A stretch of DNA of 64,000 nucleotides from a virus, in IMG/VR virus record IMGVR_UViG_3300036861_001106, positions 1 to 64,000 of that record. One strand, given 5' to 3'. This document shows positions 1,023 through 54,269 of the stretch, piece by piece. The notes beneath the pieces were generated by a model. It worked only from the letters and a program-made list of their open reading frames with translations, did no database searches and was not told the DNA's origin. Position numbers and translations under genes: made by a program. Position 1 is the stretch's first letter; the number at the start of each line of letters is the position of its first letter.

Positions 1023-1069
1023 TGAACCCAGGTTGCTTGTCGCGCAATCGAGGGTAGGAGGTGTTGCTG

Positions 1070-1489
1070 ATGATTGGACCGCTGGCTTGCTGTGCGTCTA
1101 GCTATGAGCGTTGCCGGACGTGCGGTGGGTTCATTGCCTACGAACACTGCGTTGACTGTGGGAGGGCTGCGCTGCCTGCTACCTCTGCGCCTGCTTCCTC
1201 GGCTGCTTCCTCGGCTGCTTCCTCGTCTGGCTCGCCAACTCAAGGGGGTGGCGTGGGCTCACCTGCTGTCTCGTCTGCGTGCCCGATGTGCGGGACGGCG
1301 GTGGTGGGGGCGTGCTGCCCGCGGTGTGGGCTGCCGGCTGCGGTGCCGCCTGCGCCGGCGGTGCCCACGGCGGGGGCTGCCCTGCCCGCGGCACAGGCTG
1401 CTGCCCCGGACGTCAGTGCCTGCTGTGGGGTGGCGTGGTTCCTGTGCGACGGGGTGCGGGTCTGTGAGGGGTGCAGGCTGCGGTGCTGA
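1070..1489 (+). CDS. multi-zinc-ribbon protein with Ala/Ser/Pro linkers
   Basis: AGGAGG SD; several CxxC pairs; 12-nt tandem repeat CTGCTTCCTCGG at about 1191-1225. Confidence 0.7.
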   Translation: MIGPLACCASSYERCRTCGGFIAYEHCVDCGRAALPATSAPASSAASSAASSSGSPTQGGGVGSPAVSSACPMCGTAVVGACCPRCGLPAAVPPAPAVPTAGAALPAAQAAAPDVSACCGVAWFLCDGVRVCEGCRLRC

Positions 1490-1715: not shown

Positions 1716-1865
1716 CTACTTCGGTGGGTAGCAGCCCCACCCGACGGTGGGGGCCTTCCGCGCCTCCAGCTCCTGGAGGGTGAGGTGGCGGGCCTCACCC
1801 TGCGCCTCCGCCGGCGGCGTGACCTGCCGCTCCCGGCGGAGGAGCTTGCGGAGTAGTGCTCTCAA
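1716..1865 (-). CDS. 49-aa peptide, RiPP-precursor-like or pheromone-like (not in ORF track)
   Basis: SD GGAGGTG, TTG start; MRALLRKLLRRERQVTPPAEAQGEARHLTLQELEARKAPTVGWGCYPPK*. Confidence 0.65.
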   Translation of the reverse strand: MRALLRKLLRRERQVTPPAEAQGEARHLTLQELEARKAPTVGWGCYPPK

Positions 1866-4372: not shown

Positions 4373-4423
4373 ATTCTACCGAAACTTTTGGCAGTTGACA
4401 AGCCCCTGTCAAGTCGGTATCCT
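4373..4423. promoter_or_regulatory. bidirectional promoter with a shared -35 element
   Basis: plus TTGACA(4395-4400)-17-TATCCT(4418-4423); minus TTGTCA(4401-4396)-17-TAGAAT(4378-4373); lies at the strand switch of the genes. Confidence 0.75.
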
Positions 4424-10567: not shown

Positions 10568-10842
10568 GCCGAACAATCTGGAAGTACCCCCTCCCGGCTA
10601 AATACTACGGGGATTTTGAGCTTGAGCTGCCGGATGGCGCGGTTTTTCTGAGCCTTCAGGTTCAGCGCGGGGTGCCCTGTCTCTGGGCCATGGTGGATCC
10701 GAGTGCGCCCAAGGTGAGGGAGACCTTCAAGTGGTTGCTCACGGGGGATGAGGTGCCAACCGGCACTGACTGGGGCTACGTGGGTCTTGTTCAGCTCCAT
10801 GACGGTGGCCTTGTCGTGCACCTGTGGAGGATGTTCCGTTGA
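10564..10842 (+). CDS. conserved phage protein (IWKYPL...LWA family)
   Basis: RTIWKYPL...LELPDGAVFLSLQVQ...CLWAMVD. Confidence 0.7.
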   Translation: MSRTIWKYPLPAKYYGDFELELPDGAVFLSLQVQRGVPCLWAMVDPSAPKVRETFKWLLTGDEVPTGTDWGYVGLVQLHDGGLVVHLWRMFR

Positions 10843-11825
10843 GCGCCTTCCTTGAGTCCCTGGTCCTGCCCGTGCTCACCGAGGCCACCGTCGCCGCCGC
10901 CATTGCCGCCGCCAGTGTGCGGGGGCGCGGGGACAATGACCTCGCGGACCAGCTTGCCACCGAGGCAATGCGGGAGGTCCTGAATGCACGCCTGCCCTGC
11001 GCCGCCGTCGTCGTCGCGGGGGAGGGGGGGCGCACCGACTCGCCGCGCCTGGAGGCGGGTGAGGAGCTTGGTCATGGTGACTTCAACGACCCCGTCCTGC
11101 AGCTCGTCGTGGACCCCCTGGAGGCGACCCGCTGCTGCGCCCGGGGGGAGCCGGGGTCCATCTCAATGCTCGCCGCCGCCTTCGAGGGGGAGGGCGCCTT
11201 CCACGTCGGCCCGGACACCTACCTGGAGAAGGTCGTGCTCGCCGCTGACCTGGCGGCGCGGCTGGATGTCCTGCGGCACCAGGTGGAGGTGCAGTTCCCG
11301 GACCAGGCCTCGCAGCACCTGCTTGACCTGCCGCTGTCCAAGGTCGTGGACTGGCTCGCCTGGGCGCGCCAGAAGGAGCGGGCGCACGTGACGACGATGC
11401 TCCTGGACCGGGAGCGCAACGTGCTGGCGATCAAGTTCCTGCAGGAGCTGAACTCCCAGGTGCGGCTCATCCGCGACGGGGACGCCGTGGCAGCCCTGCT
11501 GGCCCTGGACCGCACGAGTGGCGTGGATCTTGCACTTGGAATCGGTGGAGCACCGGAAGCCCTGATTGCCGCCGCCGTGACCCGCGTGTTCGGTGGGCAC
11601 GCCGAGTTTCGCTGGTGGGATGCGGCGAGTACCGGGCCGAAGCCAATCTACACTGCCGAGCAGCTTGCCTCGGGGCACGTCATGTTCGCGATGACCGGCG
11701 TGACCAGCAACGAGGTGCTGAGGGGGGTCAGGTATCGGCGTGGCCTCCCGGTCACGGATTCAATCTGCGGAAGTAGCCGCACTGGCGTGATTTCACGGAT
11801 TGAGCGGGAGGTGCATGTCAGGTGA
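10839..11825 (+). CDS. glpX: class II fructose-1,6-bisphosphatase
   Basis: GRGD..AD, GEG, DPLEAT, YLEK, LDR.R, DGD, GIGGAPE and TGVT motifs in the canonical order. Confidence 0.9.
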   Translation: MSAFLESLVLPVLTEATVAAAIAAASVRGRGDNDLADQLATEAMREVLNARLPCAAVVVAGEGGRTDSPRLEAGEELGHGDFNDPVLQLVVDPLEATRCCARGEPGSISMLAAAFEGEGAFHVGPDTYLEKVVLAADLAARLDVLRHQVEVQFPDQASQHLLDLPLSKVVDWLAWARQKERAHVTTMLLDRERNVLAIKFLQELNSQVRLIRDGDAVAALLALDRTSGVDLALGIGGAPEALIAAAVTRVFGGHAEFRWWDAASTGPKPIYTAEQLASGHVMFAMTGVTSNEVLRGVRYRRGLPVTDSICGSSRTGVISRIEREVHVR

Positions 11826-12654: not shown

Positions 12655-12700
12655 GGTAGGTAGGCGAATATTTGCCTACCTACCAACAAGGAAGTAAAAT
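12655..12700 (+). promoter_or_regulatory. inverted repeat overlapping a promoter-like element upstream of the HNH
   Basis: TGGTAGGTAGGC...GCCTACCTACCA; TTGCCT(12672)-17-TAAAAT(12695). Confidence 0.5.
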
Positions 12701-13205
12701 GGCAGGGAAAAGGGGTGTTCGAGGAGGGGCTCCTCAAAGCGTCGGCGATCTTTTGCTCAGAATTTCCATTTTGGAGTTTGATGAAACGTCAGAACGGCAT
12801 CCATCTTGCCCAAAGACAGGTTGTTGGGCAATCGATATAAAGCCTGCAAAGAATGGCTACTGCCAAGTACGAGTCAGTGGCGAACGAGGTCCTGTTCACA
12901 GGTTTGTTTATGAGTACTTTGTTGGAGCAGTGCCTGAGGGGAACGATCTGGATCACCTTTGTAGGAATCGGAGCTGCTGCAACTTCGAGCACTTGGAATC
13001 CGTTTCACGGCAGGTCAATCTGCTTCGGGGCAAAACGGTCACTGCTCGAAATGCCGCCGCAACTCACTGCCCACAGGGGCATCCTTACTCCGGGGATAAT
13101 CTTTACCTCTGGACCAAGAAGGGGCACCGGTTCTGCAAAGTTTGTCAGCGCGCTAACCAGTTGCGTCAGCGGGCTCGTAGGCGCGCTCTTCGTCAGCAGG
13201 ATTGA
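12699..13205 (+). CDS. HNH homing endonuclease, same family as 137-670
   Basis: VHRFVYE, DLDHLCRNRSCCNFEHLE, THCPQGHPYSGDN; lower GC than flanks. Confidence 0.9.
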   Translation: MAGKRGVRGGAPQSVGDLLLRISILEFDETSERHPSCPKTGCWAIDIKPAKNGYCQVRVSGERGPVHRFVYEYFVGAVPEGNDLDHLCRNRSCCNFEHLESVSRQVNLLRGKTVTARNAAATHCPQGHPYSGDNLYLWTKKGHRFCKVCQRANQLRQRARRRALRQQD

Positions 13206-13745: not shown

Positions 13746-14141
13746 GTGGTCACGCTGGCGTCCGTGAGCCCAGTCCCTGCCAAGCCTGTCCTCACCCGTG
13801 CGGAGCTGCTCGTGGCAGCCCGCGCCGCCGCCGCGTGGCCGCTGGGCTGCAACGCCGCCACGCGGTGGTTCAGCAGTCCTCAGGCTGCAGCCGCCTGCAG
13901 CTACCCGCACCCGGTGCAGGTGGCGCTGGCACGCCGCTGGGGCTGCCCTGCCGTGGCGGTGACCGCCTACCGCGGTCACCTCCGCGGCGACCCAACCGTC
14001 CCATGGCCCGAGGTGTGGGCGGTGCAGGTGGTCCTCATTGCCCTGGTGCGCGTGGGCGACCTGCGCCTCAATGAGGCACTGACCCAAGTTCCAGCGCTGG
14101 TGGCGCAGGTCCTGCAGGACCTGGCTGCTGCCCAGTGCTGA
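13746..14141 (+). CDS. hypothetical protein
   Basis: GGAGGAGG SD, GTG start. Confidence 0.5.
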   Translation: MVTLASVSPVPAKPVLTRAELLVAARAAAAWPLGCNAATRWFSSPQAAAACSYPHPVQVALARRWGCPAVAVTAYRGHLRGDPTVPWPEVWAVQVVLIALVRVGDLRLNEALTQVPALVAQVLQDLAAAQC

Positions 14142-14166
14142 CGACAAGTGCGAAAGGACAAGAACC

Positions 14167-14706
14167 GTGCGAATCAAAGCTGTGCTGCTGGCCGTGTTTG
14201 GTCTCCTCTGCATGCTCACTGCGCCACGCGCTGAGGCGAACACCTACGGGACCTGGGGCCTCTATGGCGACCGCTACTGGCAGGTGATGGCGAACGTGAT
14301 AAACCCCCTCAATGGGGCCACCTACACCACCTATGGGGGCACTTACGTGTACGTGCCACACAGCGGCAACTACGAGAACCGACTGCAGAACTCGAATGCG
14401 GAGGGGATGAGTCCCCACTTCTACACCCTGGTCGGGAGCCTTCAGCGGTACGACCGCGGTTTTGCCTACTGGCGCTACTTCAACGACGAGATTCGCGGCT
14501 ACACCCAGCCGTCGCAGCCGCAGGCAGCCTGGAGTGTCTACGGCTGGCGGAACCCGCCAACAGACAACTACTGGGACTACGTCTCCGTCAGCCCGCCGAA
14601 CACCTGGAACCTCTGCGATGCCATCACACACGCGACCGACCATGCCATCGGCTACGTCTCGCGTAGCATCTCGGAGCGCCAGTATTACAAGACGATAAGG
14701 CAGTAG
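14167..14706 (+). CDS. exported Tyr/Trp-rich protein
   Basis: AAAGGA SD; signal peptide ending AEA. Confidence 0.7.
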   Translation: MRIKAVLLAVFGLLCMLTAPRAEANTYGTWGLYGDRYWQVMANVINPLNGATYTTYGGTYVYVPHSGNYENRLQNSNAEGMSPHFYTLVGSLQRYDRGFAYWRYFNDEIRGYTQPSQPQAAWSVYGWRNPPTDNYWDYVSVSPPNTWNLCDAITHATDHAIGYVSRSISERQYYKTIRQ

Positions 14707-16005: not shown

Positions 16006-16632
16006 TTGAAGCTGATAACGCCAACGACCCTGACGCCGCACGAGGAGGAGGCGCACCTCCGTCAACTTGCGGGCCTCATCAACGAGGCGGTGCGGGTGTA
16101 CCGCCGGAAGCTGCCCGAGGGTATCTCAACCGAGGAGCTGCGGGGGGAGGTGCAACTGGCTGTGCTGCAGGCCGTGCGGACCTGGCGCCCTGACGGCGGG
16201 GCCTCCCTGGAGGTGTGGTGTCGGCTGTTGATCAAGCGTCACCTGCAGCACAGTGGGCGCAAATTCATCTGCAGCGTCTACCGGGGGTGGGGTGTCGCTC
16301 GGTTGGCAGCAGGGGACTTACCGGTGACGCTGTCCCTGGATTCGCCTCACGCACCTGGGGTCGATGGTGACGAACGAACTGTGGATGACTTCATCCCAGT
16401 GGTTGAGGACGTGGCCACCGTGGTCCTGGCGAAGGTCGAGGCTGAGCGGATCCTGGCGCTCGTGCATCGGCTTCCTGTGCAGCAGCGCAGCGCGGTGGTG
16501 CTGCGCTTTGGCTTCGACGGGGCAGGCATGCGCACCCAGGCGGAGGTGGCCGCACTCATGGGCGTGTCGCAGATGGAGGTGTCCCGGCGGCTGCGCCGGG
16601 CCCTCCAGGACCTGCGGTCCAGCTTGGAGTAA
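16006..16632 (+). CDS. sigma70-family sigma factor
   Basis: region 2 (EELRGEVQLAVLQAVRTWRPDGGASL) and region 4 (LRFGFD...TQAEVAALMGVSQMEVSR). Confidence 0.88.
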   Translation: MKLITPTTLTPHEEEAHLRQLAGLINEAVRVYRRKLPEGISTEELRGEVQLAVLQAVRTWRPDGGASLEVWCRLLIKRHLQHSGRKFICSVYRGWGVARLAAGDLPVTLSLDSPHAPGVDGDERTVDDFIPVVEDVATVVLAKVEAERILALVHRLPVQQRSAVVLRFGFDGAGMRTQAEVAALMGVSQMEVSRRLRRALQDLRSSLE

Positions 16633-16636
16633 CGTG

Positions 16637-17239
16637 ATGATCACCGCGGACGATGCTCTCGTGCGCGCCCATGAGGGGCTCGTGCAGCAGTGCGTGAACA
16701 ACCACCAGTACCTCCTGTCCCCGTACCTGGAGCGCGAGGACCTGGTGTCAGCGTGCTACCTCGCACTGCTCCGCGCGGCGCGCCTGTGGAACCCAGAGTA
16801 CAACGTCAAGTTCAGCACCTACGCGGTGACTGCCATGCACAACGCCTGCATTCAGGCGCGGCAGCGGGCCATGCCCTCTGGGTTTCGTGGGCGCTTCGCG
16901 GCGGCTGAGTTTCCGCAGGTCTACTCGCTGGACCAGCACGCGCGTGACGAGGACGGTGAGGACCTGGAGAGCCTGCTGATGGCCCCCGATGACCCGGCGG
17001 GGCAGGCGCTACAGCGGGTCAGCCAGAGTGAGGTGCGGCAGCTCGTGCGGGCGGTGCTCGCGGCTCACCCCACCGAGCTGCGGGTGATCGAGCTGGCGTT
17101 CGGGCTCGTCGACGGGGTGGAGTGGCGGGGGCGGGACATCGCGCGGCACCTCAGGCTCTCCCGCACCGCCGTCAGCTCGGCGCTGCACCGGGCGCTGGCA
17201 CGGCTGCGCCGGTCCCGGGAGTTGGAGGTGCTGCGGTGA
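16637..17239 (+). CDS. sigma70-family sigma factor
   Basis: REDLVS...AARLWNPEYNVKFSTYA; region 4 FGL...DIARHLRLSRTAVS. Confidence 0.9.
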   Translation: MITADDALVRAHEGLVQQCVNNHQYLLSPYLEREDLVSACYLALLRAARLWNPEYNVKFSTYAVTAMHNACIQARQRAMPSGFRGRFAAAEFPQVYSLDQHARDEDGEDLESLLMAPDDPAGQALQRVSQSEVRQLVRAVLAAHPTELRVIELAFGLVDGVEWRGRDIARHLRLSRTAVSSALHRALARLRRSRELEVLR

Positions 17240-18542: not shown

Positions 18543-18571
18543 TGAGCAGCCATCCGGCTGCTCACTTTTTT
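18543..18571 (+). terminator. intrinsic terminator
   Basis: TGAGCAGCC-ATCC-GGCTGCTCA followed by CTTTTTT. Confidence 0.8.
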
Positions 18572-18583
18572 CGGGTGGTGGGG

Positions 18584-18681
18584 TTGACACTTGCCTGCCA
18601 TCCCGGTAACCTCAGGTTGCTCACTAATCTTCACTGACGGACACCGTTGCCGCAGCCCCCTGGGGCTGCGGCGCCTTTTTT
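18584..18681 (+). ncRNA. promoter, ~65-nt RNA and terminator (sRNA or attenuator leader)
   Basis: TTGACA(18584)-17-TAACCT(18607); GCCGCAGCCCC/GGGGCTGCGGC hairpin plus T6 immediately before the next SD. Confidence 0.55.
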
Positions 18682-18692
18682 CTGGAGGACCG

Positions 18693-23844: not shown

Positions 23845-24129
23845 ATGGATGGGATGGAGTATGCCGACGTCGTCGGAGAACGGTTAGAGAGGGAGCGCGA
23901 TGAGGCAGAGCAGCAGCGGGACAAGCTGCAGGCCGAGTGCAGCCAGTTGCAGGAGGAGCTAATGGAGTTCCAGGAGATTGCCTACTTCTGGCTGGATCGT
24001 TGGGAGGAACAGCGAGAAGGCTGGGGCTGGCGGCACAACTACCTCTACGACCGCACGAAGGCCGCGCTCATCGACGACTTCGAGTGCGGGGACTGGATGT
24101 GTTGCACCGACGATGACAATCTGGCCTAA
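23845..24129 (+). CDS. small coiled-coil hypothetical protein
   Basis: ERERDEAEQQRD; part of a coupled small-ORF run. Confidence 0.6.
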   Translation: MDGMEYADVVGERLERERDEAEQQRDKLQAECSQLQEELMEFQEIAYFWLDRWEEQREGWGWRHNYLYDRTKAALIDDFECGDWMCCTDDDNLA

Positions 24130-24145
24130 CAGACGAAGGAGAGAC

Positions 24146-24328
24146 GTGCGGCTGCGGGAGCAGCGCGACGAGGCGAGAGCTGCGGCACGGGAGGCAACTA
24201 GGCTGCTGTTGGCCGCGCCGGTCATGGAACGCCTCGGGGGTCAGGCGGCGACGGTGCAGGCCTTCCTGGAGAGGTATCCCTGGGTCCACGAGGCGCCACA
24301 GCCAAGCATAGACGAGGAGGAGCGATGA
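24146..24328 (+). CDS. small hypothetical protein
   Basis: AAGGAG SD, GTG; EQRDEAR...YPW. Confidence 0.55.
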   Translation: MRLREQRDEARAAAREATRLLLAAPVMERLGGQAATVQAFLERYPWVHEAPQPSIDEEER

Positions 24329-32636: not shown

Positions 32637-32707
32637 GGGTGACCCAGTCCGTGTCAAGTGTCGCTGAATCGCGGTAGAATTCAGACAAGTGTCAGAGTGG
32701 AGGCTCC

Positions 32708-45555: not shown

Positions 45556-45584
45556 TTGACAGGTGTCAGCCCGTGGGGTAGAAT
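45556..45584 (+). promoter_or_regulatory. consensus promoter, probably leaderless transcript
   Basis: TTGACA-17-TAGAAT, 6 nt before GTG at 45591. Confidence 0.75.
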
Positions 45585-53295: not shown

Positions 53296-54269
53296 ATGGC
53301 CGCTACCTTTCTCGTGGAACCAGCGTAACGGAGCGAGCGGCACGGCGACAGACCTCGGATCAAGCGGAAATTTGGCTTCAAGAAGTTGGCCCCTCGCGTA
53401 GGAATGCGTGAGTGAAAACGGCGTGAATTGCGGGAAGCCTACAGCGAAGGCCATGGTAATCCGCAGCCAAGCTCGACAGGGCACTGGTTGTCGAGAAGGT
53501 TCAGAGACTAGAGGGTGAGTCCCAACAATAAGCCCTCCACGAGCGCGCCGCACCCAGATCGGGTGATGAGATAGTCCAAGCATCGGGGAAACCCGGTGAA
53601 CTAGAACTTCAAGACCACGGACACGACGGGGATTGGAGATTACGCCGCGAATCCGGTCTCAGCCGGCTCGAACTCAATGGAAGTCGTACTGCGGATGCAC
53701 TTCACAGGGTCTGCGGCCCCTCCAGCCTGAAAGGGCTGGTCGTGATGGCGTGAATTCGGGGAAGCCTACAGCGAAAGCCATGGTAATCCCGACCCAAGCT
53801 CTCCAGGAATGGTGAGAAGGGCTAGAGACCAGAGCAAGTAGACGAGACCCGTCGAACGCTCCACGAGCGCGCCACACCCCTCGGGGTGATGAGATGGTCC
53901 GACACTCCGTGGAAACGCGGAGAGCCTTGGATAAAGAGCCAAGGTGTAACTGGTGCCTTCAACCGCATCGCCGACTTCCGATTCTGGCAATCGACGGCGT
54001 TCTCGCCGTCCACCGGCTTGCAGGTCTTCTGGTCCGGCACGCAGGTCATCTACCTGCAGCCGACCACCGGCACGTCGTCCATCGCCACGTCGTCCATCCC
54101 GACGACCGACCCTGGCACGGCGAACGTCAGCGTGGGTGGCTCCCTGACCGGATGCCTGACGACATCTGGTTTTACGGACCACATCTACCTTCAGCTCAGG
54201 ACTGCGTCCAACGCTGCGGCAGGTGACACATCGCTCGGAACTTTCACGGGCAGCTACACTGAGAACTAA
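53296..54269 (+). CDS. putative virion protein in three exons (53296-53377, 53605-53710, 53956-54269); needs a +1 shift at ACC TTT C
   Basis: AGGAGG SD; joined product ~166 aa: MAATFSWNQRNGASGTATDLGSSGNLA/NFKTTD...RMHFTG/SFNRIADFRFW...YTEN. Confidence 0.75.
53378..53604 (+). ncRNA. group I intron 1 (227 nt, ORF-less)
   Basis: P AATTGCGGGAA, Q AATCCGCAGC, R TCAGAGACTA, S GAGATAGTC; P1 GGCU/GGCC with U-G; P10 GAAGUU/AACUUC; terminal G. Confidence 0.92.
53711..53955 (+). ncRNA. group I intron 2 (~245 nt, ORF-less)
   Basis: P AATTCGGGGAA, Q AATCCCGACC, R CTAGAGACCA, S GAGATGGTC; P1 GGGU/GCCC; 3' site G53955 (alternative G53952). Confidence 0.88.

Follow-up and report, generated by a model that had tools for sequence, protein, structure and literature searches.

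Does a phage small RNA silence, in trans, a single gene in a long operon of the same phage? The question is raised by a short string that is shared between a small cassette on the minus strand of an uncultured phage genome and the ribosome-binding region of a gene for an exported protein 12.6 kb away. A first-pass annotation had read this match as trans-acting translational silencing of the phage's own envelope genes, comparable to type I antitoxin control or to superinfection-exclusion timing. If such silencing were true, a lytic-type uncultured phage of high GC content would switch off a single cistron in its own long operon by means of a free-standing trans-acting RNA, a form of control that has been documented for very few phages. 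The source record is an uncultured IMG/VR phage of 109,530 bp (~65% GC), and the window referred to here is the whole stretch of DNA that was analysed, i.e. the first 64 kb of that record. Coordinates below are those of the window unless given as genome coordinates, and coordinate 1 is arbitrary because the terminal repeat of the phage record is only 29 bp.

Results

The gene map, called by codon statistics, comprises 174 genes over the phage genome. A rightward gene arm spans 4200-64952, and the remaining genes run mostly leftward, from 4243 down to 667 and from 109 kb down to 65 kb. The genome encodes a T4-like portal, a class II fructose-1,6-bisphosphatase (FBPase), a DnaE-type polymerase and HNH endonucleases, and contains a group I intron. 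At 16006-17239 (+), two genes of the sigma-70 family (regions 2 and 4) stand side by side, which suggests that the phage redirects the host RNA polymerase.

Two tandem units of ~120 nt, henceforth referred to as cassettes A and B, lie on the minus strand, flanked by genes 1061-1489 (+) and 1716-1865 (-), which converge; the latter gene encodes 49 aa. Read along the minus strand, each unit consists of TTGACA, a spacer of 19 nt (A) or 17 nt (B), TAGAAT, CAGA, ~27 variable bases (henceforth the ‘seed’) and a GC hairpin of 13-14 bp that is followed in both units by the tail CTCTTTGT. The promoter of cassette A (1561-1591, -) thus has a spacer that exceeds the optimum, and that of cassette B (1682-1710, -; TTGACA, 17 nt, TAGAAT) scores 11/12. 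Both belong to a phage-wide promoter family, TTGACA-N17-(C)CGG-TAnnnT-CAG(A/G), of which nine sites have a perfect TTGACA -35 element, 7 of them intergenic. Family promoters lie on the plus strand at 4395-4423, 32651-32680 and 45556-45584, and another at genome position 81258 (+) opposes the leftward genes, with 6.7 kb behind it without a gene. At a leaderless promoter of this family, at genome position 73338 (-), the ATG falls on the 7th base downstream of the -10 element, and the transcription start sites of the cassettes were therefore placed at this base. On this basis, the predicted RNA A (1486-1554, -) would be ~65-69 nt long, with a single-stranded 5' stretch, a small hairpin of 4 bp and a terminator hairpin (1497-1527) followed by the tail CUCUUUGU, the U-tract of which is weak; the predicted RNA B (1609-1675, -) has its terminator hairpin at 1621-1651. 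Both RNAs fold with a free 5' stretch, at -27.3 kcal/mol (z -3.2) for RNA A and -29.7 kcal/mol (z -5.6) for RNA B. The only coding capacity is a 3-codon frame at the 5' end. A plus-strand open reading frame of 42 aa across the cassettes (1536-1664) was rejected as spurious, having no Shine-Dalgarno sequence (SD) and a low GC3.

Comparison of the two cassettes shows that the seeds are their least conserved part (~54% identity, against ~90%) and that two compensatory pairs are kept between the hairpins. The last codons and the stop of gene 1061-1489 are duplicated at the start of cassette B, and, since the repeated CGGTGCTGAC includes this stop codon, the cassettes arose by local tandem duplication. 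The product of gene 1061-1489 (+), which converges with the cassettes, contains three CxxC...CxxC zinc-ribbon motifs with Ala/Ser/Pro-rich linkers between them and gave no family match. The search of Rfam returned no match to the cassettes at the gathering threshold, the best sub-threshold hit being F6 (27 bits versus 46). Overall, judged by sequence, both cassettes have the promoter of their own and the intrinsic terminator that are expected of a trans-encoded small RNA, and they look like genuine small transcription units.

The 14-mer GCTGACGACAAGTG has just two copies in the 109,530-bp genome, one at 1525-1538 and one at 14137-14150. At the latter site it is directly followed by CGAAAG (14151-14156), and in cassette A the same hexamer lies at 1546-1551, separated from the 14-mer by seven extra bases (ACGATCA) that are present in the cassette only. 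The positions and letters of this 14+6 match are all as the first-pass annotation had given them, as is its remark that 3 of the 14 nt lie in the terminator stem (GCT forms the stem base). The seed of RNA A (1525-1551, -) would accordingly comprise a 14-nt block (1525-1538), a 7-nt bulge (1539-1545) and a 6-nt block (1546-1551). The proposed target (14137-14160, +) holds, in this order, the stop codon TGA (14139-14141) of the upstream gene (13746-14141, +; start codon uncertain), a spacer and the SD AAAGGA (14153-14158), which lies 8 nt before GTG 14167. The 14-nt block starts two bases before the TGA and so contains the stop codon of the upstream gene, and the gap between the two genes is 25 nt. 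If RNA A starts at 1554, the predicted duplex consists of 2+6 bp at the 5' end of the RNA, the 7-nt bulge and 14 bp, and spans positions -30 to -8 relative to GTG 14167, over the SD. The downstream gene (14167-14706, +) encodes a 179-aa protein with the N-terminal signal peptide MRIKAVLLAVFGLLCMLTAPRAEA, and the GTG start is supported by this proper, cleavable signal peptide and by the single homologue described below. The protein belongs to no known family: searches of Pfam and PHROG gave no match, the ESM Atlas gave no lead, and its AlphaFold model (pLDDT 35) is unusable apart from the signal-peptide helix. Two other descriptions of the shared string were rejected: it is not a repeated intergenic motif, as it occurs only twice in the genome, and the seeds do not mirror a common ribosome-binding-site tag, as no 7- or 8-mer of the seeds is found in more than 2 start regions. 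A third copy of GACAAGTG at 32684-32691 lies inside a promoter/leader and would be mostly untranscribed.

The match was assessed against three nulls for the 32-nt seed region, namely dinucleotide shuffles, unrelated natural 32-mers of like GC content and the genome's own 32-mers. An exact match of at least 14 nt anywhere on either strand was obtained with 0.9%, 1.0% and 3.7% of these, respectively. When the exact 14-mer had to lie sense-oriented inside a start region, the figures fell to 0.15%, 0.09% and 0.31%; 3.6% of strand positions belong to start regions. In 2.9% of cases such a match was accompanied, within 10 nt, by another colinear block of at least 6 nt. When seed A was scored by gapped identity against the 174 start regions, that of the gene at 14167 came first with a score of 35, the runner-up having 25. 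A score of 35 was reached by 0.07% of shuffles, by none of 5000 unrelated natural 32-mers and by none of the phage's own 174 start regions scored against each other (maximum 32); it was also reached by 0.3% of the 32-mers of a distant relative, where the matches are true homologues. The identity tests thus reject chance for the seed A match at ~10^-3, even genome-wide, and as sequence identity the match of seed A to the 14167 start region is beyond chance. The first-pass annotation had agreed to abandon its reading if equally long matches arose often in shuffled or unrelated sequence; in start regions such matches proved rare (0.09-0.15%).

The same annotation had also called for a comparison of interaction energy with that of shuffled seeds, and this comparison did not single out the 14167 site. 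By RNAduplex, seed A and the 14167 region pair at -33.9 kcal/mol, the best of the 174 start regions, and 16% of shuffled seeds match that value somewhere. With accessibility taken into account the value was -14.2, the site ranked 4th of 174, and 82% of shuffles had a start region at least as good; for binding to the 14167 region itself, the accessibility-based value was equalled by 1.1% of shuffles. Energy cannot discriminate here because a pyrimidine-rich seed will build a long helix full of G-U pairs with whatever start region is rich in purines. The complementarity of seed A thus has P ~0.0007 by identity, whereas its energy was equalled by 16% and 82% of shuffles, and the lesson for method is that identity tests with natural-sequence controls set the site apart and duplex energy did not. 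Co-folding of RNA A with the target kept the terminator intact and gave a net -19.2 kcal/mol, with 11+6+2 bp.

A weaker, three-block link had been drawn between seed B and 24126-24148 (+), a junction that holds the stop TAA of the upstream gene, the SD GAAGGAG and the GTG start of a gene for a 60-aa charged soluble protein. The blocks are present: CTAACA (24126-24131) coincides with the TAA stop, GAAGG (24135-24139) with the SD and AGACGTG (24142-24148) with the GTG. By identity, no other start region matches seed B better (score 25). The significance of the link did not hold up: a score of 25 is within chance, as it was attained with 34% of start-region-like queries and also with 1.8% of shuffles and 2.4% of unrelated 32-mers, and by energy the target ranks between 21st and 81st. 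Scored against the two junctions, the seeds gave 35 (A) and 25 (B) with their own and 14 and 14 when crossed; the TGA of the A junction is matched by a TGA in seed A, and the TAA of the B junction by a TAA in seed B. By RNAduplex, seed B pairs best with the start region of another gene (P 0.023), which drops out when accessibility is taken into account; this gene (genome 69523-70041, -) encodes a phage protein with an ETR1_N ethylene-receptor-like N-terminal domain (E 3e-16). A second candidate site for RNA A lies at genome 74213-74227 (-), at the start of a gene for a 101-aa zinc-ribbon protein that overlaps the dnaE stop (GTGA). Here RNA A is predicted to form a 15-bp helix with one G-U pair, plus 5 bp over the SD GGAGGA. 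A 15-bp helix of this kind in a start region has P 0.1-0.26% with shuffled or unrelated seeds and 5.7% with start-region-like sequences, and the identity score of the site for seed A (25) is unremarkable; we regard the start of this post-dnaE gene as a lead only.

Among 5.8 billion proteins, the 179-aa target protein has one relative (58% identity), which is encoded in a 62-kb phage record whose proteins are 58-59% identical to those of our phage. This record contains no cassette, and its homologue of the target gene has its own promoter and a strong SD. When the target protein, an 813-aa protein and the products of the flanking and upstream genes served as queries in protein-seeded scans of IMG/VR and the JGI metagenomes, only the 62-kb record was returned, and no relative that carries the cassettes. 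DNA pattern scans with TCTGATTCTACCGGG, with the hairpin-to-minus-10 pattern, with GGTGCTGACAAAGAGAG and, in metagenomes, with GGTAGAATCAGA..AGCCCTGC gave chance matches only.

Discussion

We propose, tentatively, that RNA A acts in trans to mask the SD of the gene for the exported protein, and we put the probability of this reading at about 0.4, since the transcription of RNA A, its pairing in vivo, the repression and its timing are all inferred. Cassette A would be a small-RNA gene, transcribed leftward from a host-type promoter to give an RNA of ~65-69 nt that ends at an intrinsic terminator. The free 5' stretch of this RNA would pair with the polycistronic mRNA that is read rightward, in the 25 nt separating the upstream gene from 14167, through 2+6 bp at its extreme 5' end and, after the 7-nt bulge, a further 11-14 bp. 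With the weak SD AAAGGA and the bases immediately before it buried in the duplex, 30S subunits would not load and less of the exported protein would be made. Because the cassette promoter is of the host-sigma type and the phage encodes sigma factors of its own (16006-17239), such a brake would act early in infection and fade later. The anatomy of the cassette, the non-random identity and the position over the SD all favour the trans-acting silencing that had been suggested from the first inspection of the sequence; the energy test and seed B do not, and two elements of that suggestion are not supported. To speak of ‘envelope genes’ goes too far, as only the target of RNA A has a signal peptide and that of RNA B is the 60-aa soluble protein, and control of the type I antitoxin kind does not fit a 179-aa exported protein encoded 12.6 kb away, which is not a small adjacent toxic peptide. 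A role in the timing of superinfection exclusion is pure conjecture. Several considerations weigh against SD masking. The predicted energy does not favour the site. Once the 3 nt locked in the stem are set aside, 11 nt of uninterrupted match remain, a length that half of the shuffles attain in some place. Translation of the upstream gene ends at the TGA within the site, and the terminating ribosomes would probably keep displacing RNA A. The perfect identity exceeds what pairing needs and could reflect copying, and the strong divergence of the seeds is unlike that of most sibling small RNAs. The weak U-tract of the tail and the 19-nt spacer of promoter A also count against it.

Copying is the rival that survives best, and we consider it unlikely. 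The shared string would then be a short patch of common ancestry without regulatory consequence, and RNA A, if made, would act elsewhere, for instance on host mRNAs or as an antisense to read-through from gene 1061-1489. That 20 of 20 bases are identical and are interrupted by one clean 7-nt indel resembles homology more than selected, imperfect pairing, and BLAST extends the similarity around the 14-mer to a stretch of 41 columns at 80% (1500-1538 versus 14111-14150; E 0.0037 in one run and 8.6e-4 in another). In addition, the pairing energy gives the 14167 site no privilege, and the duplicated CGGTGCTGAC shows that local duplication created the cassettes. The two regions nevertheless do not belong to a larger duplication, because their flanking sequences show no relation, the proteins encoded next to them are not paralogous and only the 41-column stretch aligns. 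Each copy of the 14-mer has an HNH endonuclease gene of PHROG 826 (137-670, +, and 12672-13205, +) ~0.9 kb upstream; we considered the two regions as a paralogous mobile HNH cassette and rejected this, as the flanking proteins are unrelated and the HNH genes are only 38% identical. Moreover, a neutral relic should have accumulated scattered mismatches, since seeds A and B have diverged by 46%, and the antisense position of the string exactly over an SD, in the small fraction of strand positions that start regions occupy, would be a further coincidence.

That the match arose purely by chance, a GC-rich 110-kb genome having offered enough sequence for a 14-mer match to one of two seeds of 30 nt, appears improbable to us. 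It is true that an exact match of at least 14 nt exists somewhere for 8.9% of 29-mers drawn at random from the genome, that 3.4% of the 50-nt start regions of the phage have a 14-mer in common with another start region and that the original match was picked out post hoc. However, for sequences of the composition of the seed the probability of a 14-mer is 0.9-3.7% anywhere and 0.09-0.31% in a start region, and the added colinear 6-mer multiplies it by 0.029. Less probable again is that the cassettes are promoter/terminator punctuation between the convergent genes rather than RNA genes, and the string a DNA-level site, e.g. for a phage regulator: the parts conserved between A and B are exactly the promoter and the terminator, with a variable middle, the units do sit between genes 1061-1489 (+) and 1716-1865 (-), and TGACGA recurs in seed A 10 nt apart, but it is hard to see what punctuation would be served by two tandem promoters that each fire straight into a terminator of their own, and the string occurs only twice in the genome with no palindrome common to both copies. 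A DNA-binding site is unlikely in particular because the 7-nt indel splits the match and would break the geometry of a protein site; an indel within the match would suit an RNA bulge better than a site bound by protein.

Among known systems, the closest parallel to SD masking by RNA A is the c4 antisense RNA of phages P1 and P7, which acts on the RBS region of icd/ant via short complementary blocks and thereby stops translation of a phage gene (review PMC12197685). Here, too, a phage RNA of ~70 nt is predicted to face the RBS of a phage gene with discontinuous short blocks (14+6). The c4 RNA is encoded immediately before its target, within one operon, and is excised from the operon transcript. 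Cassette A differs in having its own promoter and terminator, in lying on the opposite strand at a distance of 12.6 kb and in having a tandem duplicate, and no relation between c4 and cassette A was found by sequence or in Rfam. The most economical reading is that RNA A would be like c4 in mechanism and not a member of the c4 family. The sar RNA of P22 and the OOP RNA of lambda are cis-antisense RNAs that overlap their targets and are fully complementary to them (PMC12197685). They resemble what we propose in that a small phage RNA with its own promoter and terminator lowers the expression of a phage gene by pairing, and differ in that the target of cassette A would be at a distant locus and the pairing would be 14+6 with a bulge, which is not cis-antisense; at their own locus, the cassettes would be overlapped by nothing other than read-through transcripts of gene 1061-1489. 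DicF, PreS (LPR1) of lambda and VpdS of VP882 are Hfq-dependent trans-acting small RNAs whose known targets are host mRNAs (PMC12197685; 10.1101/2024.10.31.621285). The promoter-seed-terminator architecture is shared with them, as is the predicted pairing in trans at or near start regions. In contrast to these RNAs, the only visible target of RNA A is an mRNA of the phage itself. Tandem sibling small RNAs such as OmrA/B, PrrF1/2 and Qrr usually keep the seed and vary in the rest. Like OmrA/B, which are tandem siblings (PMC13473878), cassettes A and B are adjacent duplicates with similar promoters and terminators, and, unlike in most siblings, the seed is their most diverged part.

This divergence invites a bolder extension of SD masking, which strikes us as a long shot. 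The cassettes could form a modular antisense device, in which a fixed scaffold of promoter and terminator was duplicated and the middles were then rewritten for different stop-SD-start junctions, A mirroring 14137-14160 and B mirroring 24126-24148, with RNA A perhaps covering the start of the post-dnaE gene as well. Early transcription by the host sigma factor would silence the chosen cistrons until the phage sigma factors take over.

Some further features of the window were recorded. A third compact unit at 18584-18683 (+) has a family promoter (TTGACA-17-TAACCT), a short pyrimidine-rich 5' stretch and an 11-bp GC hairpin followed by TTTTTT, and a separate terminator lies nearby at ~18548-18573. 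As the unit ends just before the SD and ATG (18693) of the next gene, it may be a leader or attenuator or another small RNA. The class II (GlpX) FBPase gene lies at 10839-11825 (+; Pfam E 2e-64), and a peptide-seeded scan of the genome collection returned no close relative of its product. The group I intron lies at 53369-53598 (+; Rfam RF00028, 79 bits).
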